From a virus (lineage: Duplodnaviria; Heunggongvirae; Uroviricota; Caudoviricetes), in IMG/VR virus record IMGVR_UViG_3300001598_000046, positions 1 through 64,000 of that record: 64,000 nt of DNA; one strand, written 5' to 3'. A program made the position numbers and the translations under genes. The notes under the pieces are model-generated. The model ran no database searches, was not told the DNA's origin, and saw only the letters and a program-made list of their open reading frames with translations. Of this stretch, positions 6,324 to 63,198 are shown piece after piece (position 1 is the first letter of the stretch; each line of letters starts with the position of its first letter).

Positions 6324-6395
6324 TAGGAGGGGTTGGTTTTGATCTCCTACACTTATATATAACAAATGATGATAAAAACTTTAGTCATTTTTATC
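6324..6395 (-). promoter_or_regulatory. 5' leader cassette of gene 6104..6313: hairpin (CTTTAGT loop) - ATATATAACAAA box - hairpin with GGGTTGGTTTTGAT loop
   Basis: Stem TAGGAG(6324-6329)/CTCCTA(6344-6349) with 14-nt loop; box 6355-6366; stem GATAAAAA(6371-6378)/TTTTTATC(6388-6395) with loop CTTTAGTCA. Confidence 0.45.
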
Positions 6396-7889: not shown

Positions 7890-10800
7890 TTAGTCATTAT
7901 TATCGGTTTCTGGAATTGCCTCACAATGAATGACTTCCATATCAACTTCATTATTATCCAAGAAGCCTGCCAACTCAAATGTGTGTTCGTTTGCGCCGAG
8001 TTTTTCGAGTTCATCCTTTTCTTTCCATAAGAGCTCAACTTTCTCAAGTTTTACGATACCCTCCTTATTTGGTCTCGACATTTTGACAAGACACTTGAAT
8101 ATCTCTTCGAATTTCTTACGGATCGTTTCCATTGTATATTGCGCCATATTAATCTTGACTCTATCATCAGATTCTTTGCGAGCATAACTCATTGCATAGT
8201 TACTAATGAAATTCATCACATCCACCTTCTTGACCTTATCATATTGGCAGAAATCATATATATGGTTCATATAGTCTTGAATTGGAATATCCAAACGATG
8301 GTTCTTCTCATTATATACAAGATTAATAAGAAGTTTGATACGTTTGATGGCTGCAAAATTGAATGAACGATTCTTATTTCTACAAAAATCAAAAATATCC
8401 TTAATATCTTCTACCATATATTGTTTTGACATACTTACGAAGATTGGAACCACCTTTTCGAATACTTCAATATTCTTAACAATCATTACCTTTTTATTGG
8501 CATCCTCCTTCCAATCATCTCCCTTACGGATCTCATAAAGACCCTGAAGAACATCGTGGTAGATTGACAAACGATCCTCAGTAATGAGATCCATCAACTC
8601 CTCAACATGTGATGTATTGGCTGCCATTCTATCATCATACGCAAGCTTAACCATATTTTTGAGATCAGAGAATATCTCACCATCCTCAAGCTTGAATCCA
8701 CCCAAATCTTTTGATGTTACCTCATAACCATAAGCCATCATACCCTTCATAAGTACCGGTAATTGCTGGACATATTCTCTATATTTGCGCTCAAAATATA
8801 TGACCTTATAAGCGATTTCATTGAGGTAGTATTTATTTTCCACCTCATTATATTCAATAAATTTATTATCGTGAATGATTGATGCAACCAATGAATTATA
8901 CTTATATTCAATAGGGTTACGTTCGATCATTGAGTTACATAAACGAAGAATGGATTGCACATCTTTTATCTCTTCATCATTCAATTTGAAGTTCATTTGT
9001 CTAAATTTATGGATACTACGACTATTTCCATCTGCATCATTTTTTGAGATATATAGACGAATGAATAGGTCATTTGAACGAAGACGATTGGCAAACTGTT
9101 CAACCTCCTGAGGCATCATCAAATCATCAAAATAGATATTGAATCTGAATTTATCCAATATATCCACACCCACGGATAGATAGTTTGAGCACATAAGAAT
9201 TTGTGTATCCTTAATTGTCTTCTCAAAGTTCACATCATCCATAAACTCCTCGCCAAGATTCGACTTCTTGTAATATTTGAGGTTAATTTCATTGAACTCA
9301 CAATACTCATGTTCCATAAAATATTGGACAGCTGCTTTGACCTGATCGGAGAATAACGTACCTTTATTGGTAGGGAATAGTACGCGCCGACCCTCATATA
9401 TATCTTTAGCCATTGCGCGACACATATGATAGAAGAGATCATTTGGTGTTTCTACCATATTGACGAGGAACTCCTTTTTACGAATATCTTCCTTAATAAC
9501 CTTCAAATGAACTATATCAGGGAAGAATACTGTCTCGCCACTTGGTGTACCCGACATTAATATAATTGGCACTTCAGTATTACGGATCATCTCAACAATT
9601 TTTGACATTACTGGACGATACTCAGATTGGAACATCAAGTGTGACTCATCAATAATGATGTAATCAAAACCATTAGCCTTGATATCCATCAAGTTCATAT
9701 ATGAGAACTTATCAATGGTCATACTAACACCATTTGTCATATCCAAACGTGGTTTGCGCGATCCATACGAATAATACCAATCTTTCTCACCTTCAACCTT
9801 TGATTTGATGGTTGACGTAAATGGCATAACCATAATGACTTTCTTGCCATCTTTGACAAGGCTCTTAATCATCTCAGTCTTACCAACACCGGCACCCGCT
9901 TCAATCAATGTTACTCTCCCAATATTATCAAGCAATTGCCATTTGATATTACCCAAATACTCATCTTTTGTTATATAGAAGGTCTTATTGAATTTTGATT
10001 CATGAATAAGTGTTGGATTATCAATTTTATCAACACTATTGAATAATGAACCTTCATCCAACGAAGTATCCTGAATATTGAGTTTGATCTTGAAGCCGTG
10101 TTGAGTGTTAAGTCTATTCACAGCCCAAACATCAACTGGTTTCTCGTGACGTGCTGCCGTTACACAGTCTGCCTGCAACTCCTTATCCGAAATATTATTC
10201 GAACATACCATACGGAGATACTTATATCCTTGCTCCAATCCATACAACTGCACCAACGTATTGGCCAAACGCCATCTTTCGTGGTGCTTATAGTGAACCT
10301 TATTGTGTGTATCAGTTGTGAGTTCCGCAGCCTCCTTAACATCAATCTTCAAATCATCACCATTATCCTCTTCAAACCATTCCCAACGCTTAAATATCTC
10401 CTTTAGATCAGGATATGTAACCCAATCAATATCAGGATGTCCAAGATCCTCAACATTATCGAAGTTAATATATATGAAATCTTCGAAAAATCTTGTACTG
10501 ATCATTGGATGAGCATCATAACCAATGAATGCACCTTGTTGTGGTTTGAACATTGCAAGGTCCATCCACTTCAATAAATCATCCTTACCAAACCCAAGTC
10601 TTTCCATTGCACTCAGGCAAGATATATATACGAATGAATATTTGTGGCGGAAGTTGGTAAGATATAGGAGTTTCTTACGGTGACCATCCTTTTGATCGGC
10701 CTCTGCCACAGTAATTTTGGTATAGATATGGAGGCCCTTACCTGAGCTTGATAGTGTTGCCCCCAAGAACCAGTTACATTTATGTAGGCAATTGAATATA

Positions 10801-12177: not shown

Positions 12178-13425
12178 TTAGAACGGTGCGTCAGCGTCTT
12201 GTGCCTCATTTGCAGGTGCGGCAGGAGCAGCTGGGGATGTAGCTGCAGGTGCGTCATCAACCTTAATGTTCTTCAAGAGGATAAAGTCAATCCATCTCTG
12301 AACCTTCTCAGAAGTCTCAGCGTCCCAAGGCTTGTAAGCAATTTCGTCTTCGATGTTGATAACCTTTGCCTCATTCTTGAGGTAGTCAAGAGCGATACCT
12401 GTCAACGCGCGAACCTTATTGTAGAGCTCAGTACCCTCCTTGATCACCTTACCATCCTTATCCTTGACAGGACCGGCGATCTTAGCAGCAGCCTCTTCAC
12501 GTTTCTTAGCAGCCTTTGCAGTATCTGCATCCTTACGAGCGTTGGCATACTCTTCGAGGATCTCCATCTGTGCCTCGTCAAAGAGTGGAGTACCATCGAT
12601 TTTGCGAATTGGTTCGAACTCGGTTGCGAAATCGCAGGTAGCGTACGAGATGTTACGATCGCGAACCACTGGGTTTGGATCATCACCTGGCTTGACATTG
12701 ATCTCGAGTGGGTAACCAAGCACCCAGCTCATCAGATTGATAGCCTTCTTGCCCTTTTTCTTGTCCTCCTCTGAAGGATACTGCTTAGCCTCGAGCTTCT
12801 CACGGATATCCTTTGGAAGCTTCATCAGCATAATGCGGCCAACCAATTCAGGTTTGTTCTCATCCTCGAGAATCTGAACCAATACCCAAGAAGATGTGGT
12901 ATTATCGAAGTTCTCCTTCGCATAATTGAGGATCAATTTACCGAGTTCAGTGTTCTTGAACTTAGCGTCCCAAGCCTCTTTACCACGGCCCTCAACGGCA
13001 TTGAACTCTGCGAGCATTGCTGCACGCTTGTTTGCATCGTTTGGCCAAGCCTTCATAGCATAGCGATCTGCGAAACCATCGAGTGCGAGGAACGCCTCAC
13101 TTGATGCCTTGAAGAGTGGGCAGATACGGCGGTTGTCCTTTGTGTCGAGCATACCATTGATCTCGAGAGTTCCATCAGGACCACCCTGGAGATACCAAGC
13201 TGTTTTCTTGATGATTGAACCCTTCGATGTTGGGTTGTACGGATTGAAGATCACTCTGACCTTTGCGCGGTAGATACCATCCTCAGACTTTGAGTCACGA
13301 GGGTGAGTTTTGTACACGTTAGGGTTAGTTTTTTGAGAATCGTTGTTCTCGAATGGATTGCCACCCATAATGTCGCCATCCATCATTGCGTCAAGTACGT
13401 CTTGCTGCTGTTCTTTGTTTGCCAT
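12178..13425 (-). CDS. candidate single-stranded DNA-binding protein (SSB-type acidic C-terminal tip)
   Basis: 415 aa; Pro/Ala-rich flexible linker PAATSPAAPAAPANEAQ followed by terminal DADAPF (cf. E. coli SSB DDDIPF, T7 gp2.5 acidic tail ending in F); locally higher GC. Confidence 0.4.
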   Translation of the reverse strand: MANKEQQQDVLDAMMDGDIMGGNPFENNDSQKTNPNVYKTHPRDSKSEDGIYRAKVRVIFNPYNPTSKGSIIKKTAWYLQGGPDGTLEINGMLDTKDNRRICPLFKASSEAFLALDGFADRYAMKAWPNDANKRAAMLAEFNAVEGRGKEAWDAKFKNTELGKLILNYAKENFDNTTSSWVLVQILEDENKPELVGRIMLMKLPKDIREKLEAKQYPSEEDKKKGKKAINLMSWVLGYPLEINVKPGDDPNPVVRDRNISYATCDFATEFEPIRKIDGTPLFDEAQMEILEEYANARKDADTAKAAKKREEAAAKIAGPVKDKDGKVIKEGTELYNKVRALTGIALDYLKNEAKVINIEDEIAYKPWDAETSEKVQRWIDFILLKNIKVDDAPAATSPAAPAAPANEAQDADAPF

Positions 13426-15899: not shown

Positions 15900-17531
15900 A
15901 TGAACTATCGCAATATCAAGAATGTTGGTATGTTATATGAATCAGGTCTAATTCAGCAACCAACACTTAATGAAAAAAAGGCTGAGCCACACCCATCAAA
16001 AGAAAATGAGGAGGCGAAAGTAAAACCACAAGCTGAACATTTTGATGTTGTATATGCTGATGATATCAAAACATATACAAATATCTTCAAGCATATCATT
16101 GTATTCACCAATGATCGTGATGAGAAGAATAATAAAACTCTCAAGAATATCTACGAGGCAGTTGATAATCTTAAGAAAGATAAATGTGAAATTATTCCCG
16201 AAGTTCACGTATTCGTTGCTGCTGAGATGGATGCCGATGAGCGCGAGGAAGAGATCAAAATCACTGATGGTGATGAAACCTTTACCATAAAGGATGAGTC
16301 AAACCTCGATACTCTTATCTTTGCCCGTCTTGGTGTACAGGGAGAGGATCAATGTGAGCATATCGTTCAATTATTGCAAGATCGTGGATTCCTCGTATTG
16401 AATCCAGTTAAGTATTCTGCATTAGCCTGCGATAAGTATGAGTCAGCTGTATTGTTCCAAAAGGGTGAGATTCCTCAACCAAACTTTACTCTTATGACAA
16501 AGGATATCCTTTATGATAAGAAGATATATGATAAGGCGATGAAAGAGGTTTATCCTGAATGGAATCCCGATGATCCTGATAAGAATGAGGAGCTTTCATT
16601 CGTTGTTAAGATTCTTGATGGTCACGGTGGAACAGGTGTTATGATGATTGATGGTAAGAAAATCCTTGCTGCATTCCAACTTATATTTGCAATAGACCCT
16701 GAACGCCGTTTGATTATCCAAAAGAAGGAGGAGGCTGATGGTGGTGATATTCGTGTTCACGTTCTTACACTTCGTGATAAGCAAGTTATTCTTGCTTGTA
16801 TGAAACGTGTTAAGCTTGGTGGTGATTTCCGTTCGAATGTATCTCTTGGTGCACAAGCAGAACCAGTTAAACTCACTCCTGAACAGGAACAGATTGCATT
16901 GAAGACCGCGCAACTCTCACATCTCCCTTGGTGTGCTGTTGATATTATGCCATTGGTTAAGGGATCAAATAAGGAGATTGGTGATAATGTTGTTCTTGAG
17001 ATCAATGCCAGCCCTGGAACAGATGGTATTTCTGATGTAATGAAGGAGAATTTCATTAATATATTACTCAACGAACTTGATGATCCATCACAATTTATGT
17101 TGCAGGATAAAACTGCAGGATTCATAGAATCGGTATCAATCAATTTTGGAAATACCACAAAAGATTTCCTTGCAAAACTTGATACCGGTAACTCCACAAC
17201 AGCATGCTGTCTTGAGGTTGGAGAGTTCTCTGAGAAGAATGGTCAAATCCATTTCAAGATGGATGGAAAAGAGGTATCATTTAAGAAGACAGGTAAATCT
17301 ATTGCGACTGCTGGAGAGCAGAGTTATGAGCGTCCTGTTATTACTGTTCCTGAAATTACTGTTGGTCTTCGTAAAGTTAAGAACGTCCAAATCAGTATCG
17401 TTAAGAGTCGCGAAAATAAAACAACAAACTGCTTGATTAACAGAGATGTATTGAGTAAGCTTGGATATGTTATCCACCCAAATAAGGCTCATATCCTTAC
17501 AAAAGAAATGGAGAAAGTAAAGATTATCTAA
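15900..17531 (+). CDS. RimK-family ATP-grasp alpha-L-glutamate ligase fused to RimB-like retropepsin (DUF785) domain
   Basis: KILDGHGGTGV, DGGDIRVHV, GDFRSNVSLG, TPEQEQIALKTA, VLEINASPGTDGI all parallel E. coli RimK (GDFRSN, TPQEREIAIKAA, VMEVNASPGLEGI); C-terminal AKLDTGNSTTA..ERPVI..LINRDVL matches RimK-associated retropepsin-like family. Confidence 0.85.
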   Translation: MNYRNIKNVGMLYESGLIQQPTLNEKKAEPHPSKENEEAKVKPQAEHFDVVYADDIKTYTNIFKHIIVFTNDRDEKNNKTLKNIYEAVDNLKKDKCEIIPEVHVFVAAEMDADEREEEIKITDGDETFTIKDESNLDTLIFARLGVQGEDQCEHIVQLLQDRGFLVLNPVKYSALACDKYESAVLFQKGEIPQPNFTLMTKDILYDKKIYDKAMKEVYPEWNPDDPDKNEELSFVVKILDGHGGTGVMMIDGKKILAAFQLIFAIDPERRLIIQKKEEADGGDIRVHVLTLRDKQVILACMKRVKLGGDFRSNVSLGAQAEPVKLTPEQEQIALKTAQLSHLPWCAVDIMPLVKGSNKEIGDNVVLEINASPGTDGISDVMKENFINILLNELDDPSQFMLQDKTAGFIESVSINFGNTTKDFLAKLDTGNSTTACCLEVGEFSEKNGQIHFKMDGKEVSFKKTGKSIATAGEQSYERPVITVPEITVGLRKVKNVQISIVKSRENKTTNCLINRDVLSKLGYVIHPNKAHILTKEMEKVKII

Positions 17532-18951: not shown

Positions 18952-19061
18952 TTGTAGAAGGGGTTGGTTTGGTATCTTCTACAAATATATATAACAAAAG
19001 TTTGAAAAAACTTTAGTGTTTTCAATAACAAACCCTCGAAAAACATTTAGTCTTTCAAGGG
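18952..19061 (-). promoter_or_regulatory. leader cassette upstream of 18556..18945: two CTTTAGT-loop hairpins, ATATATATAACAAAA box, hairpin with GGGTTGGTTTGGTA loop
   Basis: Stem TTGTAGAAG(18952-18960)/TCTTCTACAA(18975-18984), 14-nt loop; box 18985-18999; stems TTGAAAA/TTTTCAA (19002-19025) and CCCTCGAAA/TTTCAAGGG (19033-19061) with loops aactttagtg / aacatttagtc. Confidence 0.45.
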
Positions 19062-27656: not shown

Positions 27657-27989
27657 TTATTCACTTAAATCATCAATCAATTCCTGAATACGTTTTGCAG
27701 ATTTTGCACAATTTTCTTTATCTCCTCGTTTTGTATATTCATCAAGCTGGTTTTGTGCGATTTGTAATTCGATTACCTTTTGGTCATGTGTGGCTCGGGA
27801 AACTTCTCGAAGAGTCTTGGTAAATTCTGCTACCCAATCCAAAGCACCTTTGGAGAAATGGTGATGATCTATACCAATTTCCTTACATAATATGATTGGA
27901 TCGAGGAGGCCAGTCATCTCACATTTTTCTCTCAAAGTTTTCGATGAAAAGAAAAGTGGTACGGCTTCAAAAATTATTTGATCATCCAT
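27657..27989 (-). CDS. hypothetical protein
   Basis: 110-aa ORF. Confidence 0.4.
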   Translation of the reverse strand: MDDQIIFEAVPLFFSSKTLREKCEMTGLLDPIILCKEIGIDHHHFSKGALDWVAEFTKTLREVSRATHDQKVIELQIAQNQLDEYTKRGDKENCAKSAKRIQELIDDLSE

Positions 27990-27992
27990 ATT

Positions 27993-28241
27993 TTATCCGA
28001 TTGGTCCGTATGTGACGACTTCAACTGTCATATTCGGATGGTTAATACCAATATTCACAATACTTGTCCCGAGTGGAGTAGTTCGCTGAACCTCAAAAAT
28101 GATTTCACCATTTTCTATATGATGGCCGACCACGACACCCTCGAAATCGAGTGGAACGAGACAATCACATTTGAAATGAAGCCTCTTCCCAACCAATTGA
28201 TTTGCAACGAATACTTTAATATCTAATTTAAGATCCTTCAT
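27993..28241 (-). CDS. hypothetical protein
   Basis: 82-aa ORF. Confidence 0.35.
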   Translation of the reverse strand: MKDLKLDIKVFVANQLVGKRLHFKCDCLVPLDFEGVVVGHHIENGEIIFEVQRTTPLGTSIVNIGINHPNMTVEVVTYGPIG

Positions 28242-28561
28242 TAATCAAATATTGATTTGTAGCCAATGGTAACCTCGCGAGATATTGAATCACCAATATG
28301 AACCTCGTGATCAAATGAATGATGATCATAAATTGAATCATTATAACAAATAGTTGTTTCCCAAGATTCAGGATGGTAAATTCTACGAGTATGGATTGTT
28401 GTAACCTTCCCACAATGAATTGGAACCAACTGTGTTGTGGAATATGCTTGGTGGTATTCAACCGCAACAATCCTACCATATTGTGTCTCAGTAATTCGTG
28501 TACAAGCCATACAAAGTACACAGGCCAAAATTAATAGGAACTTTTTCATTCTATATCGCAT
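28241..28561 (-). CDS. small lipoprotein (paralogue of 32412..32675)
   Basis: MKKFLLILACVLCMACTRI: signal peptide plus Cys lipobox-like MCMAC motif shared with the other copy. Confidence 0.45.
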   Translation of the reverse strand: MRYRMKKFLLILACVLCMACTRITETQYGRIVAVEYHQAYSTTQLVPIHCGKVTTIHTRRIYHPESWETTICYNDSIYDHHSFDHEVHIGDSISREVTIGYKSIFD

Positions 28562-29016
28562 TTTGTTTTGAAGTTATCAAACATTTCCTGATCAAAATTC
28601 CAATTAGGTATCGTACCATCATCCTCAACTTCGAACTCGAAATAATCACCCCAACCACCTTCACCGACACAATCAGGAACATATCCTTCATATGAAAGTC
28701 CGGGTATTGGTTTCATATCTTCATCGAGGAGCATATACATACATTCGTCAACGACCTTCATATTATAAAAATCAACAGCCAATTTTCCAGTTGGCCAATT
28801 GACTACGCGGCCGGCATCGATATCAATAATAAGTAAGAGATTTTCACCACCGTCAGCACGAAGCATACCAAACTTTTTTACGGCATCACTAAGTGTATGA
28901 ATACTCTTCAATGTTGCGTGGACATCCCACTCCTCGAGAAAATCTGCAGGAATTACGATTTTGAGGTATTTCGCATCTGCATTGATGCTCTTTGTAATTG
29001 TGTACTGTACTTTCAT
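28546..29016 (-). CDS. hypothetical protein
   Basis: 156-aa acidic ORF. Confidence 0.45.
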   Translation of the reverse strand: MKVQYTITKSINADAKYLKIVIPADFLEEWDVHATLKSIHTLSDAVKKFGMLRADGGENLLLIIDIDAGRVVNWPTGKLAVDFYNMKVVDECMYMLLDEDMKPIPGLSYEGYVPDCVGEGGWGDYFEFEVEDDGTIPNWNFDQEMFDNFKTKCDIE

Positions 29017-29019
29017 ATA

Positions 29020-29241
29020 CTATATCAATATTTTTGGTTCAACCACCATTACCCCGCGCAAATCTCCATCATCGTCAACGAGACTGCCAATCCTCACGAG
29101 GTTACAACCGTGAGCTCGGGCTACCTCACGAAGATGTTGAGCCCATTCCTCAGAAGAACAAAGACCATATCCCCATCCCTCGACTCGGCGATTTCGCTCA
29201 ATGGCTTTTTTGCAAAGTTCGATCAATTTTTCTTCAGACAT
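29020..29241 (-). CDS. hypothetical protein
   Basis: 73-aa ORF. Confidence 0.3.
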   Translation of the reverse strand: MSEEKLIELCKKAIERNRRVEGWGYGLCSSEEWAQHLREVARAHGCNLVRIGSLVDDDGDLRGVMVVEPKILI

Positions 29242-29255
29242 AATTTTTAAGTTTA

Positions 29256-29549
29256 TTAATTTCTAATATGTTTTCTAACCACGTGCTCACGAGTTGCCAA
29301 CTCAGCCTTAACTTCAGCCAATGAAAATCTACATTCACCACGATGACCTTTATATGGATTCCAATGAGCAAATTTACCCATAATTATCTTACAGGATGGA
29401 TCGAAACCCCAATCACCACAATCTACCTCACCAATTTTATCCATCACATCCCACCCACGATATATCCAATGCATTTGTCTTTTGAATACCGCAAGGAGAT
29501 CCTTTGTTGGAACATGTTTTAGGACATATTGTCTAAACTCTTTCGTCAT
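29256..29549 (-). CDS. hypothetical protein
   Basis: 97-aa ORF. Confidence 0.4.
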   Translation of the reverse strand: MTKEFRQYVLKHVPTKDLLAVFKRQMHWIYRGWDVMDKIGEVDCGDWGFDPSCKIIMGKFAHWNPYKGHRGECRFSLAEVKAELATREHVVRKHIRN

Positions 29550-29570: not shown

Positions 29571-29620
29571 ATATATATAACAAAAGTGGAGGAAACATTT
29601 AGTAGTCTCCTCCACTTTTT
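29571..29620 (-). promoter_or_regulatory. intergenic cassette: conserved-loop hairpin terminator plus ATATATATAACAAAA box
   Basis: Box 29571-29585; stem GTGGAGGA(29586-29593)/TCCTCCAC(29608-29615), loop aacatttagtagtc, T-run. Confidence 0.45.
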
Positions 29621-29637: not shown

Positions 29638-31143
29638 TTACTTGTTAACTGTTGCAGCGATAACACTTGAGTTATCTTTCATAATCTTACCAAGATCAAC
29701 ACCAGTTGCAGTCTTGATGGTCTGCATTGCCTGAGCCATTACCACCGGAACATTACCGGAGATACCTGCAGCCTCGTTACCATTGGTTCCGAAAACTGTG
29801 ACGTTATCGATTGAACCAAGTGGCTTAGCAACATTGGCAACCACATCAGGAAGAACCTTGATGGCCATCTCAGCCATTGCGGCACCGTTGTACTTCTTGT
29901 AGGCCTCAGCCTTCTTGTCCATTGCGGCAGCCTCAGCCTCACCCTTAGCCTGAATTGCAGCGGCCTCAGCTTTACCTTTGGCCTCGATACCAGCAGCCTC
30001 CTGCTGTGCGGCAAACAACTCAGCCTCTGCCTTTGCATGAATAGCCTTTGCTCTCTGTTCAGCTTCATAAGCCTCAGCTTCAGCCTTACGCTTGCGCTGC
30101 TCCAACTCTGCTTTTGCATCGGTCTCCTTTTTGAACTTGTCAACCTCAGCCTGCTTTGCAACCTCAGCCTGCAACTGCTTCTCACGGATGGCAACCTCCT
30201 GTTCCTTCAACTCCTGCTCACGCTTAGCCTTCTCAACCTCAGCTTCAACAGCTGCTGCGTTGATCTCCTTTTTACGTTCCTGAAGACGAATCTCCTTTGC
30301 AGCCTCAGCCTCAACAGTTTTGATGTTAACCTCCTTGAGCTGTTCCTGCTTCTGAATCTCATAAGCGGCATCTGCAACGGCCTTCTGTGTATCAGCCTGA
30401 CGTTTCAGATCGGCTTTCTTGATATCGAGTGCAGTGTTCTTCTCAGCGATCTTTGTCTCGGATTCAACTCGTGCATCATTTGCCTCACGCTTGGCCTCAG
30501 CCTCAGCCTTAGCGATATCGCGTTCTGCATTTGCCTTGTTGATTGAGGCGTTCTTCTTGATCATATAGGTGTTATCAGCACCAAGATCCTGAATGAGGCC
30601 CTTCTCATCAGTGATTGACTGAATGTTGCAAGTAAGAATCTCAATACCAAGCTTCTCCATATCCTTGGCAGCCTTCTTCTGAATCTCGTCAGAGAAACCA
30701 TCTCGGTTGAGGTTGAGCTCCTTAAGTTCCTGAGTACCAATGATCTCACGCAAGTTACCTTCGAGTGAATCCTTCAATTCAGATGCAATCTGTTGTGGTG
30801 CTTTATTCAGGAAGTTAGCGGCCGCGACAGCAAGCATAGTCGGATTGATTCGGACCTTCGCAACGGCGTCCACGTTAACATTGATAAAGTCTTTGGTAGG
30901 AATTGATGATGCCTTAATATCAACGGATAACTGACCGAGATACAGCATATCCTTTTTCTGAAGTCCTGGAAGTTTGATACCACCGGAACCGATCAAGAAC
31001 TTAGGATTTTTGCGTGGCCATCCGGAAATGACGTAGGCAACATTTGGTGATGTTTTGACATACGAAATCGAGAATAGTATAATGAGCACCAAAATGACTG
31101 CTCCGGCTACTATCAGGCCGCTTGATAATGTTAATCCAAACAT
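29638..31143 (-). CDS. flotillin-like SPFH/band-7 domain membrane protein
   Basis: N-terminal TM LIVAGAVILVLIILF, SPFH-like core, long Ala/Glu-rich coiled coil (AEAEAKREANDAR...EAEAYEAEQRAKA...) typical of FloT/YqiK; 501 aa; GC clearly above genome background. Confidence 0.75.
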   Translation of the reverse strand: MFGLTLSSGLIVAGAVILVLIILFSISYVKTSPNVAYVISGWPRKNPKFLIGSGGIKLPGLQKKDMLYLGQLSVDIKASSIPTKDFINVNVDAVAKVRINPTMLAVAAANFLNKAPQQIASELKDSLEGNLREIIGTQELKELNLNRDGFSDEIQKKAAKDMEKLGIEILTCNIQSITDEKGLIQDLGADNTYMIKKNASINKANAERDIAKAEAEAKREANDARVESETKIAEKNTALDIKKADLKRQADTQKAVADAAYEIQKQEQLKEVNIKTVEAEAAKEIRLQERKKEINAAAVEAEVEKAKREQELKEQEVAIREKQLQAEVAKQAEVDKFKKETDAKAELEQRKRKAEAEAYEAEQRAKAIHAKAEAELFAAQQEAAGIEAKGKAEAAAIQAKGEAEAAAMDKKAEAYKKYNGAAMAEMAIKVLPDVVANVAKPLGSIDNVTVFGTNGNEAAGISGNVPVVMAQAMQTIKTATGVDLGKIMKDNSSVIAATVNK

Positions 31144-31322
31144 ATTTATAAAATTTAATGGTTAGTTTTCTTTTGGTTTTATCCTGTATTTCAGGTGAGT
31201 ACTCAAAAAGGTCGGCTCCTCAATATCCTGCCACGGAATAGATTCGTGAGTTTGACATTGGATTGTTGCACCCTCTGCATATGCCTTAATTAATGGAGCC
31301 AAATAAGCGGCACGTTCTCTTG

Positions 31323-32051
31323 TCATACTTTTCTCTGTTTGTCACCTTGCCATTGGCCATTATAGAGATCATCATCATCAACAAGATATGATTCCTCAAC
31401 GCGAGCCTGAGCAATACGAGCGAATTGTTCGATGGTTATACTTGTATAAAGTTCCATAAAACAACCCATATGATCGGTTTTGAATCCACCATCAAATTGG
31501 CCGGAAAGGATTTTGCCACCACAGCGAACAAGACTTGAGCGTGGATCATAATGGAGGACTGCATTTCCAGGGATGTTACAACTCTCTGCAAATGTTACTT
31601 CGTAGTAACCTGGTTCAAGTTTCCAACCCATCTCACCATTTTCCAATTTCATTGGAGGAATTGGAGTTGAGATACATTTCTTTGTTTTCCCTTCTCTCGG
31701 GATGTAGCCTTCACCTCGTACATCACATATTTCAATCACTCGACAGTCAATACCCTGCTGCTGGATACATTCACCTGAGTAATTCATTATGATGCCGGTA
31801 TCGGCGATCTGTTTACCTGTTAATTGCATATTAATCGAATACTGTTTTGATTCTGTAACAATTTGTTCGTGGCGCTCCATCAAAGCAACCATTATACTTC
31901 TCAATAAACTGTTTCTTTTTCGCCTCACTAAGTGAAGCAACGTGTTGCAAGCATAATTTACGACATTTATATCTATTTCCGTCACATTTATTTGCCCACG
32001 GATAATGACATTCTTTCCATCTTGTTCCATCATCATATGGGTATTTACCAC
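31323..32051 (-). CDS. dut: dUTPase / dCTP deaminase superfamily protein
   Basis: C-terminal half carries PRSSL, GQFDGGFKTD, ARIAQ (dUTPase motifs 2-4); real start may be ATG at 31829 (MQLTGKQ), 1 nt after stop of ORF 31831..32103. Confidence 0.5.
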   Translation of the reverse strand: MVNTHMMMEQDGKNVIIRGQINVTEIDINVVNYACNTLLHLVRRKRNSLLRSIMVALMERHEQIVTESKQYSINMQLTGKQIADTGIIMNYSGECIQQQGIDCRVIEICDVRGEGYIPREGKTKKCISTPIPPMKLENGEMGWKLEPGYYEVTFAESCNIPGNAVLHYDPRSSLVRCGGKILSGQFDGGFKTDHMGCFMELYTSITIEQFARIAQARVEESYLVDDDDLYNGQWQGDKQRKV

Positions 32052-32103
32052 CCATTAGATGTTCAGGTTTATCGGGATTATGTCGTGGTTTACCTTTGCC
32101 CAT
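31831..32103 (-). CDS. small Cys-rich hypothetical protein
   Basis: 90 aa with CHYPWANKCDGNRYKCRKLC; overlaps the 5' part of the long dUTPase ORF in another frame. Confidence 0.3.
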   Translation of the reverse strand: MGKGKPRHNPDKPEHLMGGKYPYDDGTRWKECHYPWANKCDGNRYKCRKLCLQHVASLSEAKKKQFIEKYNGCFDGAPRTNCYRIKTVFD

Positions 32104-32402
32104 TACTTATGAATATATTCTTCAAATTCAAATGGTCGAAGGTGAGAATAACGATCGAGAGTATGTACTGCACAATCAAGTTTATTGTCAAATACATCCT
32201 GTTGGATGGAAAGACCATTCCAAAGAGTCAGCCAATCCTCTACATAACTCTTGATATCGGAGCATTTGATTTTGCTACACTCTTTACTTATTAGTGTATC
32301 TTTCGCAATTCTCTCAGTCAAAATATTGATGAGAGCTGTAGTTCCCATAACGGTTGCTGTAACCGGCCCCTCATTAGGGACCACGATAAATACTTTTTTC
32401 AT
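32103..32402 (-). CDS. hypothetical protein
   Basis: 99-aa ORF. Confidence 0.4.
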   Translation of the reverse strand: MKKVFIVVPNEGPVTATVMGTTALINILTERIAKDTLISKECSKIKCSDIKSYVEDWLTLWNGLSIQQDVFDNKLDCAVHTLDRYSHLRPFEFEEYIHK

Positions 32403-32411
32403 ATATGGTTG

Positions 32412-32675
32412 TTATTTTGATTCGATGAATGTAACCTCACCTTCCAAGCAACCCCAACCTGATGATTCAGTGAATTTCTTTGTCTTGGGAACATAATCAC
32501 TATCCATTGGTTCGGTGAGGATCCAAATATTGTTATCTTTCCAAGTACATTCGACCAACCTCTGACCCGGTTCAAGATTGATAGTGGTTTTACCACCATA
32601 ATTTCTTGTGATTTCATTTGGAGTGCAAGCCATACACATAATTGCAATGGCGAAGGCGATAAATATTTTCTTCAT
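32412..32675 (-). CDS. small lipoprotein (paralogue of 28241..28561)
   Basis: MKKIFIAFAIAIMCMACTPNE: signal peptide plus MCMAC Cys motif. Confidence 0.45.
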   Translation of the reverse strand: MKKIFIAFAIAIMCMACTPNEITRNYGGKTTINLEPGQRLVECTWKDNNIWILTEPMDSDYVPKTKKFTESSGWGCLEGEVTFIESK

Positions 32676-32748
32676 ATGATTTTTATATTACTTACAATAG
32701 AATATATAGAAATTGGATGGCTTTTTTATCAAACCACCCAATTTTTTA

Positions 32749-45044: not shown

Positions 45045-45620
45045 TCAATCTCTCAACACCAATAGGGTATCCAAATCTCTCATATCCATTAAATGCACCC
45101 ACAATCTACTGATGGTTTCGATGGTGGTGTCTCGGTTAATGCATCTCAAGCAACCAAAAAGAGAATCTCCTGTAGCAACCTCAACCAATCTCTTATTCTT
45201 TCGGTGAGGTCCGATCTCGTTACCCCACATATCGAAGCGAATATCCATTGGCTGTCGGCAACCATCAGCATCAAACGTGTTAATTATCACCTCGTTGTTA
45301 AAAACGTGGCGCACCACACCATACTCCGAACCAAAACAACCATTGCGGTTTGATGTTACAAGAACAGGAGTACCAGCCTCAATACCGTGGAGAGTTCTGT
45401 GGTAATTGAAATTTTCAATCACCGAATGAACAGGTATCTCAACATCCACAGCAGCTCGGAGGGCATTTATCAACTCCTGTCCTGTAATACTGTCGTCAAC
45501 CTCGGCAATAAAACTTCTGCTTGGAACGCCAGCAATCTTCTTTCCTATCTCATTGAAATTTACAATTACCTCGTACTTCATATATTGTCTATTGGAGGGA
45601 TGGTTTGGTATCTCCAACAT
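45045..45620 (-). CDS. hypothetical protein
   Basis: 191-aa ORF. Confidence 0.45.
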   Translation of the reverse strand: MLEIPNHPSNRQYMKYEVIVNFNEIGKKIAGVPSRSFIAEVDDSITGQELINALRAAVDVEIPVHSVIENFNYHRTLHGIEAGTPVLVTSNRNGCFGSEYGVVRHVFNNEVIINTFDADGCRQPMDIRFDMWGNEIGPHRKNKRLVEVATGDSLFGCLRCINRDTTIETISRLWVHLMDMRDLDTLLVLRD

Positions 45621-45672
45621 ATATAGATAACAAAACTTCCCGAAATCTTTAGTAATTCCGGGAAGTTTTTTT
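45621..45672 (-). promoter_or_regulatory. intergenic cassette: conserved-loop hairpin terminator plus ATATAGATAACAAAA box abutting ATG
   Basis: Box 45621-45635 directly adjacent to start codon at 45620; stem CTTCCCG(45636-45642)/CGGGAAG(45659-45665), loop aaatctttagtaattc, T-run. Confidence 0.45.
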
Positions 45673-45753
45673 GTTCAAAGTTTATGTATTTCGTGTAAGG
45701 TGGTTATACCAAAACTCAGTCGCGTGATATTTGAAGATGTTCCTCGTAACTCA

Positions 45754-47253
45754 TTACTCCTCAGGATTTGTATATGCTCCTTCCATCTCCATATCAACCT
45801 CACCAGCATCGATTGCCTTTGCTTCGCGGTTGCGATATGCAAATGTCTTGATCTTGAACGCCTCCTTGAGTGGGTCATTTTCGATACGAAGTACGAGACC
45901 CTCGCGTGGTACCTTGTTGGCACAGAATGGCTCATTCTCTTCCATACCGAAACGCTTATCTATTGCGAGACGGCGAATAACTTCTGCACGCCAAGCATCA
46001 AGATTTTCAGTTGAAATATCAGGATAGAGCTCGGCCAATGTTCCGTGATATACTTGATCAATCACTCGGATATGATTTGCAACATCCTGAAGACCATTAT
46101 TGATGAGAATCTGTTTGAACAATTTTGTCCAAGTGATTACACCCTCAATATTGGCTTCGATATGCTTATCCTCAGTAACATCATAAGCGTTGACACGGTA
46201 GATCATAAGCTGAGATTCACGAGGGCCGCAACCATAATCGTAGTTCTTTTGGATTGGACCACCTGATGGCAAGAATCCAACGATCTCACCATAGATAGTA
46301 GTGCCTCTTGGGATGAAATCCTTGATGAGGTTGTTCCAATGTGCCCAAACATCCTCATTATAGAATCCTGGGGTTACATCCTTATTGATGTACTGGTTCT
46401 TGATAACTGAACGGCTTGAGTAAACATTACCATACTCAGTCAATGGGATATCTGCACCGAAGAACTTCTTAACCTTCTCCCAAAATGAGAGTTCACGATT
46501 AACAAGAATATTACCGAAGATCGCAGAAGTACCGTGGATTTTGACTGTAAGGTCTACAACCTGATCAGGTTCGAGGCGGAAAGCATTCTTCTCGAGCTGT
46601 GCGGTGTCATAGTGGAATGAAAACTCACCCGGAACAAGACGATCGAATCTCTTGAGCTTTTTGTTGCGTTTCTTTGCACGATCCTTAGCGATCGCAGGCT
46701 GCTGTTTTGGTGCTGGGATATAAGCCTGAATGAACTGCTCGCCACCAACCATATCGAAGGTATCACCAACGTGGATCTCATCATTGAAGTAAGGGATCTC
46801 TATACCTTTTGAATGGAGGTAATTCTGCATTGCATCGAGGCTAAAGAGGTAACCCATAGATACCTGACCGCGGAGCTTGATCATACGGATACGACCATTG
46901 CGCTCGAAGAATCCGTGATGCTCGGCGTTTGGATTGGCATTCATCTCAGGATGGCAATACTCATCATTGATACGAAGGAAGTCATCGCAGAGCTGTGTTT
47001 CCATATCGGCGTAGAACATCAGGTCACCAGTGTGGACATCATCCTTACGGACTACAATTGGCATATTTGGCTTGATCTCGGTTTTTGCAATGGCGTCTGC
47101 ACCTTCAATTGGAAGGATCTCACCGATGCGAACAAGTTCACAAGCATACTCGGCCTTGAAGTGTTCTGATTTTGAAAAAATTTGTTTCATATTTTTGTTA
47201 TTTATTGAGTTATCGAATTTATTTACCAATCTTTTCCATAAAAACAATGCCAC
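45754..47253 (-). CDS. Rnl2-family RNA ligase-like nucleotidyltransferase with N-terminal extension
   Basis: Motif I VKIHGTSAIF (cf. T4 Rnl2 KIHGTN); 499 aa vs ~334 for T4 Rnl2. Confidence 0.45.
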   Translation of the reverse strand: MALFLWKRLVNKFDNSINNKNMKQIFSKSEHFKAEYACELVRIGEILPIEGADAIAKTEIKPNMPIVVRKDDVHTGDLMFYADMETQLCDDFLRINDEYCHPEMNANPNAEHHGFFERNGRIRMIKLRGQVSMGYLFSLDAMQNYLHSKGIEIPYFNDEIHVGDTFDMVGGEQFIQAYIPAPKQQPAIAKDRAKKRNKKLKRFDRLVPGEFSFHYDTAQLEKNAFRLEPDQVVDLTVKIHGTSAIFGNILVNRELSFWEKVKKFFGADIPLTEYGNVYSSRSVIKNQYINKDVTPGFYNEDVWAHWNNLIKDFIPRGTTIYGEIVGFLPSGGPIQKNYDYGCGPRESQLMIYRVNAYDVTEDKHIEANIEGVITWTKLFKQILINNGLQDVANHIRVIDQVYHGTLAELYPDISTENLDAWRAEVIRRLAIDKRFGMEENEPFCANKVPREGLVLRIENDPLKEAFKIKTFAYRNREAKAIDAGEVDMEMEGAYTNPEE

Positions 47254-48815: not shown

Positions 48816-48865
48816 TATATATAACAAAACCCCCTAAAACATTTAGTAGTTTTAGGGGGTTTTTG
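48816..48865 (-). promoter_or_regulatory. intergenic cassette: conserved-loop hairpin terminator plus TATATATAACAAAA box
   Basis: Box 48816-48829; stem CCCCCTAAAA(48830-48839)/TTTTAGGGGG(48850-48859), loop catttagtag, T-run. Confidence 0.45.
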
Positions 48866-63142: not shown

Positions 63143-63198
63143 AATGGATAATTAATTGATTACATTATATATATAACAAATCTTAATAAAATATTTAG

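Follow-up and report, generated by a model that had tools for sequence, protein, structure and literature searches.

The window analysed here, 64,000 nucleotides of DNA (positions 1 to 64,000 of the IMG/VR virus record IMGVR_UViG_3300001598_000046, Caudoviricetes), carries on its minus strand an open reading frame (ORF) of 501 amino acids with an ATG start (29638..31143), which encodes a bona fide full-length flotillin of the SPFH superfamily, an identification that is solid. Sequence comparisons support a capture of the gene by the phage lineage, which consists of large T4-core-type Bacteroidales phages, from a Paludibacteraceae-like host. This capture is ancient and not recent, and the gene has since been stably retained. 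Its product is the most conserved protein in this genome region, because its nonsynonymous divergence (dN) lies below that of PolB and of the other shared genes, and it is under strong purifying selection in the phage.

Family assignment and protein architecture

A flotillin/SPFH identity had been proposed for this ORF in a first-pass annotation made from the sequence letters, the coordinates and length of which are exact, and was confirmed by Pfam, NCBIfam, a sequence search of the PDB and a fold search. In a phmmer search against all PDB chains, human flotillin-1 (E=1.3e-49) and flotillin-2 (E=1.4e-46) were matched in two stretches that jointly span residues 31-487 (the second aligning query residues 305-487 with flotillin-1 242-419), stomatins reaching just ~1e-3. 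The top four Foldseek matches in the PDB were chains of the flotillin complex (9l3g, 9bq2; E 1e-23 to 1e-20, ~30% identity over 436-465 columns), ranked ahead of HflK/C, prohibitin, stomatin, QmcA and erlin; HflK/C, prohibitin and stomatin matched the fold at ~1e-12 to 1e-11, compared with 1e-23 for flotillin. The Band 7 domain of flotillin-2 (1win) could be aligned to the phage model with a template modelling (TM) score of 0.76, normalised to the target, and a root-mean-square deviation of 2.3 Å.

The SPFH core claimed in the first-pass annotation was recovered above the Pfam gathering cutoff as Band_7 (PF01145; E=4.8e-19; 69.5 bits, cutoff 23.6; residues 33-207, profile positions 5-175 of 176), and the Flot family passed its own cutoff as well (PF15975; E=2.5e-08; 34.5 bits, cutoff 27; residues 383-476). 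The NCBIfam FloT model NF058507 was matched with E=1.7e-77 and 261.5 bits, below its equivalog cutoff of 700, and the hflC model TIGR01932 with E=0.0076 and 15.1 bits versus a cutoff of 134.4. On sequence grounds the phage protein is thus best described as a member of the flotillin family, not as a strict FloT equivalog or orthologue, and likewise not as an HflK/HflC equivalog. No PADLOC family was detected for the protein at E<=0.01, hence no known component of anti-phage defence. Membership in another coiled-coil family without an SPFH domain was also looked for and not found: a tape-measure or scaffold coiled coil was rejected, since the SPFH domain is present and PHROGs contains no family for the protein at E<=0.01.

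The remaining architectural elements of the first-pass annotation could be substantiated too. Its N-terminal transmembrane helix corresponds to a Kyte-Doolittle 19-residue maximum of 2.86 (residues 8-27) and to a helix of residues 4-27 in an AlphaFold2 model, and its Ala/Glu/Lys-rich coiled coil of ~200 residues to a proline-free region (residues 208-420) in which A/E/K/Q/R account for 72% of positions and which is modelled as two long helices (183-268 and 279-417). AEAEA-type repeats are present, and alanine makes up 16.7% of the protein. The AlphaFold2 monomer model was built from a 62-sequence alignment and reached a mean predicted local distance difference test (pLDDT) of 71.8 and a predicted TM score (pTM) of 0.37, with pLDDT ~80-88 for the alpha/beta SPFH core and the helices.

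Among solved structures, the eukaryotic flotillin-1/flotillin-2 complex (9bq2, 9l3g), deposited as 22 + 22 chains, is the best match by sequence and by fold and shares its SPFH domain, its long helices and its C-terminal domain with the phage protein. Eukaryotic flotillins, however, attach via acylation plus a hairpin and assemble as hetero-oligomers, whereas just one hydrophobic helix, at the N-terminus, is present in the phage protein, for which the window encodes no paralogue; because of this missing paralogue, a homo-oligomer or a mixed assembly with the host flotillin would be expected. The flotillins of Bacteroidales (Paludibacteraceae and unclassified metagenome-assembled genomes, MAGs, from rumen or gut) resemble the phage copy in their length of ~500 amino acids, anchor, SPFH domain, EA-rich coiled coil and Flot domain, while B. 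subtilis FloT/YuaG and E. coli YqiK are more distant relatives. In contrast to its Bacteroidales counterparts, the phage copy resides in a lytic-type large phage genome, inside a replication gene block, and has a lower GC content at third codon positions (GC3). It also differs from the YqiJ-YqiK, YuaF-FloT and YbbJ-QmcA pairs in that an adjacent NfeD partner gene is missing: no Pfam match to NfeD was obtained for any of 10 neighbouring ORFs, NfeD was not among the Pfam matches recorded beside the bacterial homologues L108, L114 and L116, and no conserved partner gene is common to the phage lineages carrying flotillin. The flotillin of this clade is therefore a stand-alone module.

Phage context, conservation and origin of the gene

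That the gene is encoded by a phage, as claimed earlier, is borne out by hallmark genes in the window and by two independent syntenic assemblies with flotillin at the same locus. The window encodes a DNA helicase, a 999-aa PolB, an SSB-like protein, an exonuclease, an RNA ligase and TerL, and phage hallmark genes flank flotillin on both sides; no tRNAs were detected in the 64 kb. TerL (~30% identity) and PolB (22-25%) are closest to those of the Tenacibaculum jumbo phages PTm1/PTm5/pT24, Sphingomonas phage PAU and uncultured 635-642 kb phages, and for this reason sequence comparison indicates a T4-core-type large phage of Bacteroidota and not a bacterium. Megablast of the 8 kb around flotillin against the INPHARED phages yielded no match; the phage therefore has no close deposited relative. 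Exact-sequence look-ups retrieved neither P0001 nor P0005.

Of the two syntenic assemblies, L024 (ENA) encodes a flotillin 78% identical to that of the window and shares 13 genes in the same order, among them PolB, the dCTP-deaminase-like (DCD) gene, flotillin and the oppositely oriented structural block. L113 (Logan; flotillin 76% identical) displays the order DCD-like gene, flotillin, structural block. Because diverged flotillin copies (75-78% amino acid identity) occupy one locus in three independent assemblies, the gene is not an assembly artefact, and a chimera is excluded. The elevated GC and GC3 and the atypical codon usage of the gene relative to the window (detailed below) could be taken to mean passenger DNA, i.e., host DNA mis-joined or recently transduced and devoid of a role. 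This explanation is effectively refuted and retains next to no credibility in view of the three assemblies, a dN below that of PolB combined with saturated synonymous sites, the tight packing of the ORF among phage genes, the 3' phage-type hairpin-and-motif cassette that recurs in the window, and a nearest bacterial copy that is just 78% identical.

Between the window and L024, dN amounted to 0.152 for flotillin, 0.242 for PolB and 0.28-0.45 for four other shared genes. Synonymous divergence (dS) was saturated, which precludes dS-based dating of the capture, and dN/dS was 0.05-0.10 where computable. The membrane anchor is the least conserved and sole fast-evolving part of the flotillin (30-47% identity to homologues). 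The aligned flotillins displayed no fixed differences between phages and bacteria and no internal deletions or phage-specific indels, and identity between phage and bacterial copies (0.72) is at the level of that among phage copies (0.71). Judging from the alignment, the canonical flotillin function has probably been retained. Column 446 was considered as a phage signature (Asn in 9 of 9 verified or MAG near-clade bacteria, non-Asn in 10 of 10 phage copies) and was rejected, since D/K/S/G also occur in bacteria outside the clade in a 151-sequence alignment.

Homologues of the flotillin numbered 6582 at E<=1e-10. The closest named genomes are those of rumen/gut Paludibacteraceae and unclassified Bacteroidales MAGs (69-73% identity). 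For four loci, the bacterial context was verified via flanking genes: L108 (71% identical; glycosyltransferases, Pth, NrdD), L028 (73%; Rnf/Nqr subunits, sulfatase; Paludibacteraceae MAG), L114 (73%; DNA polymerase III delta) and L116 (78%, the nearest bacterial copy; SmpB, FolD). The closest host homologues, the comparison of which had been suggested in the first-pass annotation, thus belong to rumen/gut Bacteroidales (Paludibacteraceae) and share 69-78% identity with the phage protein. In a neighbour-joining tree (distance method only, 300 bootstraps), the flotillin of the window groups with P0002 (100%) and L024 (92%). These phage copies form a clade with the bacterial L116, L114 and L028 and other phage-like contigs (81%), the surrounding clades consisting of Bacteroidales MAGs, and the flotillin of the phage-like L112 groups with the bacterial L028 and L114 at 100%. 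Monophyly of the flotillins of the phage family itself (window, P0002, L024, L113) received a bootstrap of 30%, a value compatible with a single ancestral capture as well as with replacement within the family. Acquisition from a host, as suggested earlier, is upheld by this nesting among Bacteroidales flotillins and by homologues in verified bacterial context that are 71-78% identical.

Bacterial and phage sequences are intermixed in the tree, and related flotillins are present in no fewer than five further phage-like contexts; the gene has thus been captured by phages repeatedly. Phage-like contexts comprise L026 (97 kb, many small ORFans), L110, the flanking genes of which are shared with L002 and L007 (contigs of 184-365 kb), L001 (197 kb, with DNA ligase and PNKP), and L112 and L115, which contain IF3 and/or YqeY among small ORFs on the same strand. 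L005, L006 and L014 have TerL or structural genes in common with the window and possess flotillins from other Bacteroidales clades. L118 and L119, syntenic relatives with a PolB 59% identical to that of the window, contain no flotillin at the junction of DCD-like gene and structural block; L119 is located on the same 197.5 kb contig as L001, the flotillin of which lies ~55 kb from the L119 locus. Because this junction is devoid of flotillin while the same genome harbours one elsewhere, flotillin has entered large Bacteroidales phages on more than one occasion and at different loci. In the IMG/VR scan for PolB relatives, a single-sequence query found nothing and an alignment query succeeded.

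Several observations were made alongside on these contigs. The junction of DCD-like gene and structural block (27657-29549 (-) in the window) represents a variable hot spot of accessory genes across the window, L024, L113, L118 and L119: flotillin stands alone in L113, six further small ORFs follow flotillin in the window, and 2.3-3.6 kb of other genes, without flotillin, are found in L118 and L119. The translation-related genes of flotillin-carrying phage-like contigs encode IF3 (IF3_N, IF3_C) and a YqeY-like protein (L112 19118-20264, L115 5279-5713). L044, filed in GTDB as 'uncultured Mycoplasmatota bacterium' (371 kb), and L022 from IMG/VR (254 kb) share an identical flotillin, flanking genes and a GC content of ~27%; they are the same element, filed once as a bacterial MAG contig and once as a viral contig, and one of the classifications is probably wrong. 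L071 ('Bacilli bacterium', 376 kb, median ORF 88 aa) is likewise phage-like in appearance.

The guanine-plus-cytosine (GC) content of the flotillin gene is 0.473 versus a mean of 0.368 for 50 other ORFs of the window (z=3.1), and its GC3 is 0.486 versus 0.320 (z=2.7). The elevation described in the first-pass annotation is thus real; as a sign of host acquisition it is weaker than was proposed there, the excess being in part intrinsic to flotillin genes and possibly reflecting expression-linked bias, and it is not unique to flotillin. An SSB-like ORF (12178-13425 (-), 415 aa; PHROG 224, 5.1e-07) has the highest GC (0.484; GC3 0.529) and the most host-like codon usage in the window, and is either another host-derived or a highly expressed gene; a third GC-elevated patch (45045-47253 (-); GC 0.43-0.44, GC3 0.44-0.45) comprises the RNA ligase gene (45754-47253) and an adjacent 191-aa ORF. 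Bacterial flotillin genes are also richer in GC than their flanks (L028, 0.528 vs 0.470; L108, 0.522 vs 0.465), and the flotillins of the donor clade have a GC3 of 0.58-0.76 compared with 0.486 in the phage. The synonymous-codon likelihood delta is +0.012 for flotillin, +0.224 +/- 0.080 for 46 other genes of the window and -0.20 to -0.43 for donor-clade flotillins, the phage gene having the second most atypical codon usage in the window, intermediate between phage-typical and donor-typical. This fits partial amelioration of a higher-GC host gene or, equally, expression-linked codon choice, the latter because GAG, AAG, GCT and GGT are the preferred codons. The strong evidence for host origin is the phylogeny and not GC.

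Possible roles of a phage-borne flotillin

SPFH proteins build membrane-attached domes that fence off a patch of membrane, as do HflK/C with their cages around FtsH. In the reading preferred here, which is tentative and to which somewhat less than an even chance is given, the phage flotillin acts by analogy as the host protein does. It would be transcribed as the last gene of a unit following PolB, in a block of replication and nucleotide-metabolism genes, and its product would insert into the cytoplasmic membrane via the N-terminal anchor and the SPFH domain. The long coiled coils and the C-terminal domain may then drive oligomerisation into a dome or cage like those of flotillin-1/2 and HflK/C, possibly by co-assembly with the 70-78% identical flotillin of the host. 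As an auxiliary gene for membrane homeostasis, it would top up or replace the host flotillin as host expression declines, such that membrane organisation, with its microdomains, fluidity and bound machines, could be kept working until programmed lysis, which would in turn sustain energy supply and envelope integrity.

Several points weigh against this reading. Homology is the basis on which oligomerisation, membrane insertion, timing and a benefit for the phage are proposed, and the operon assignment derives solely from gene packing and hairpin positions. The monomer model with the scores given above is only moderate, and its C-terminus is poorly modelled. Conservation of the C-terminal region is lower in phage copies (0.64) than in bacterial ones (0.78), a difference that could hint at altered partner binding. 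No flotillin was found near PolB in L118-L122; the gene is hence not universal in the wider phage family, in which it is, on account of this absence, accessory and not essential. Moreover, the strong conservation would equally fit another role of an intact cage, e.g., trapping a host protease or blocking membrane-acting defences.

The first of these two roles would amount to protease control, with the phage flotillin sequestering host FtsH or another membrane protease or quality-control machine and thereby protecting labile membrane or regulatory proteins of the phage. HflK/C encloses FtsH and controls the access of substrates, as established for CII of phage lambda, and B. subtilis flotillins have been linked to FtsH. 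The E. coli HflK/HflC-FtsH complexes (7wi3, 7vhq, 9cz2) belong to the same superfamily, form cages, are tied to phages via the control of lambda lysogeny and are among the closest structural relatives after flotillin (E ~1e-12 to 1e-9); they differ from the phage protein in sequence (14-18% identity), in their shorter coiled coil and in their periplasmic orientation. The protein belongs to the flotillin subfamily and not to HflK/C, its hflC score being 15 bits with a cutoff of 134, and the window displays no lysogeny module, the classical setting of protease control. An AAA+ ATPase gene is located directly upstream of flotillin in L026 and would speak for this role, but its product (8523-9917 (+), 464 aa) is a classical AAA+ ATPase closest to p97/Cdc48 with FtsH as a weak match, is not specifically FtsH-like and has no match to a protease domain. 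As an FtsH-like partner it was rejected, as it also does not recur in other lineages; neither in these nor in the window is an AAA or protease gene found next to flotillin. Protease control by the phage flotillin is accordingly judged quite unlikely.

Blocking of membrane-acting defences would belong to a wider set of membrane-protective functions, which are regarded as unlikely here. Extra flotillin might stiffen or repair the membrane, alone or by recruiting PspA/ESCRT-III-type factors, and so blunt depolarising abortive infection, block the entry of superinfecting DNA or delay premature triggering of holins. Small phage lipoproteins are classic superinfection-exclusion factors, and one lipoprotein-like ORF is part of the putative flotillin operon, another of the next unit; in addition, that unrelated phage lineages captured the gene repeatedly and independently points to a strong and general advantage. 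In B. subtilis, SPFH proteins are reported to link the phage-shock protein PspA to the membrane (PMC8581546). Despite these hints, the idea is entirely speculative: a defence-related PADLOC model was not matched, phage-specific sequence change is absent, and no holin, spanin or anti-defence gene was identified beside flotillin. Assembly sites, superinfection exclusion and lysis timing, put forward as roles in the first-pass annotation, are likewise speculation.

Mixed oligomers, rendered plausible by the 70-78% identity, might also serve sabotage, with a dominant-negative phage copy co-assembling with the host flotillin and disrupting microdomains (signalling, secretion, cell-wall synthesis) in the course of host takeover. 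The lower C-terminal conservation of phage copies would agree with this, and excess flotillin is said, in work from 2013 attributed to Mielich-Suss et al., to perturb cell shape and differentiation of B. subtilis. A poison subunit would, however, be expected to carry a lineage-specific lesion, and purifying selection extends over all domains without truncation, internal deletion or fixed phage-specific substitution, which makes a saboteur very improbable.

Beyond the preferred reading of a supplement to the host flotillin, flotillin scaffolding of the host membrane could be a limiting resource for large Bacteroidales phages of gut and rumen; several unrelated lineages (contigs of 200-365 kb included) would for this reason have independently captured and kept host flotillin genes, be it as a cage for the membrane platform of virion production or to neutralise membrane-targeting abortive infection. 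This broader proposition is considered possible, if rather doubtful; if true, it would establish a new class of auxiliary genes in phages, directed at membrane organisation instead of metabolism.

SPFH proteins are already known from phages by annotation, and the present gene adds another. Only 10 of 50,697 INPHARED records match the phage flotillin at all. SPFH/Band-7 proteins have been annotated in Vibrio phage KIT04 ('flotillin family protein'), Rhizobium phage Pasto, Vibrio phage pVa5, Streptomyces phage StarPlatinum, Gibbsiella phage GIB1, Xanthomonas phage X1 and giant viruses. Most of them are short (~260-340 aa), stomatin/HflK-like and 10-16% identical to the phage flotillin; the KIT04 protein matches residues 52-205 only, with 24% identity. 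A literature search on flotillin/SPFH and phage returned annotation-level mentions only and no functional study of a phage flotillin, its other matches (flotillin-associated rhodopsin, phage integration into host floA) being unrelated. According to one article, why a phage should carry an SPFH gene 'remains unclear' (PMC13239085). What goes beyond precedent is a full-length flotillin that shares 70-78% identity with host copies, exceeds PolB in conservation and has related copies in several phage lineages from gut and rumen. What bacterial flotillins do is debated (microdomain scaffold, fluidity regulator, protease partner), and a phage that pays for a near-host flotillin, keeps it above the conservation of its own polymerase and shares it across lineages represents a natural experiment, in that the activity of flotillin, whatever it is, must be of consequence during the brief course of an infection; membrane organisation also joins the host functions that phages supplement. 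A practical limit is that these rumen/gut phages are uncultured.

Transcription unit and regulatory elements

Gene packing and hairpin positions suggest that the lipoprotein-like ORF, the 99-aa ORF, the DCD-like gene, the 54-aa ORF and, as last gene, flotillin form one transcription unit (Table 1). The DCD-like gene is also found upstream of flotillin in L024 and L113. No further minus-strand terminator-like hairpin was detected between 32710 and 29619. The hairpin at the end of the unit (29619..29582) starts 18 nt past the flotillin stop codon and is predicted at -25 kcal/mol (z=-5.2), with 0 of 200 shuffles equally stable; its twin at 48863..48826 is identical in loop and tail and unrelated in the stem. 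The conserved-loop terminator cassette of the first-pass annotation thus exists, as attested by this twin, but its placement ahead of the gene could not be maintained: the hairpin is located before flotillin in plus-strand coordinates only and is downstream in the direction of transcription.

Table 1 Features of the flotillin gene, its product and the adjoining minus-strand genes and elements
Feature	Position	Strand	Basis or remarks
Flotillin-family coding sequence, 501 aa, stop codon within span	29638..31143	-	ORF list, Pfam Band_7 and Flot, phmmer vs PDB, Foldseek
N-terminal hydrophobic membrane anchor, residues 4-27	31063..31134	-	Kyte-Doolittle hydropathy, AlphaFold2 helix
SPFH/Band_7 domain, residues 33-207	30523..31047	-	Pfam PF01145, AlphaFold2 core, 1win alignment
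Ala/Glu/Lys-rich long helices, residues 183-417; coiled-coil wall of SPFH cages	29893..30597	-	AlphaFold2, composition, flotillin-1 alignment
Flotillin C-terminal domain (Pfam Flot), residues 383-476	29716..29997	-	PF15975, second phmmer stretch
Terminator-like hairpin directly 3' of the flotillin stop	29582..29619	-	15-bp stem, loop TACTAAAT, A-run and T-run flanks
TTTTGTTATATATA motif, promoter-like, opening the next transcription unit (ORF 29549..29256)	29572..29585	-	
Co-oriented, tightly packed genes upstream of flotillin, probably co-transcribed	31162..32675	-	ORF list, hairpin positions
54-aa ORF	31162-31326	-	
dCTP-deaminase-like (DCD) gene	31323-32051	-	Pfam DCD 2.9e-07
99-aa ORF	32103-32402	-	
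Lipoprotein-like ORF, 87 aa	32412-32675	-	
Terminator-like hairpin after PolB, likely start of the flotillin-containing unit	32710..32744	-	-17.4 kcal/mol, z=-3.9

The TTTTGTTATATATA motif has 12 matches at <=2 mismatches versus 3.4 expected, a number reached by 0 of 100 shuffles; its intergenic copies are located upstream of minus-strand ORFs. It belongs to a recurring intergenic cassette of the minus strand (motif copies at 6354-6367, 18986-18999, 29572-29585, 45622-45635, 48816-48829 and 63168-63181), which consists of a hairpin with variable stem and conserved loop ACTAAAG or ACTAAAT, the motif TTTGTTATATATA and, at four of these positions (6354, 18986, 45622, 48816), a further hairpin TGTAGGAG...ACCAAACCAACC...CTCCTA just before the ATG. 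From its sequence, the cassette looks like a terminator, promoter and 5'-untranslated-region module of the phage.

Two small ORFs, 32412-32675 (-) (87 aa) in the flotillin unit and 28241-28561 (-) (106 aa) in the unit downstream, have signal-peptide-like starts with a lipobox-like Cys (…AIMCMAC… and …LCMAC…, respectively) and are candidate phage lipoproteins, neither of them with a Pfam match. Elsewhere in the window, the PHROG match of a 543-aa ORF (15900-17531 (+); 5.6e-09) is a family annotated as ribosomal protein S6 glutaminyl transferase (RimK-like ATP-grasp), and a copy of this ORF with 62% identity adjoins PolB in L121.

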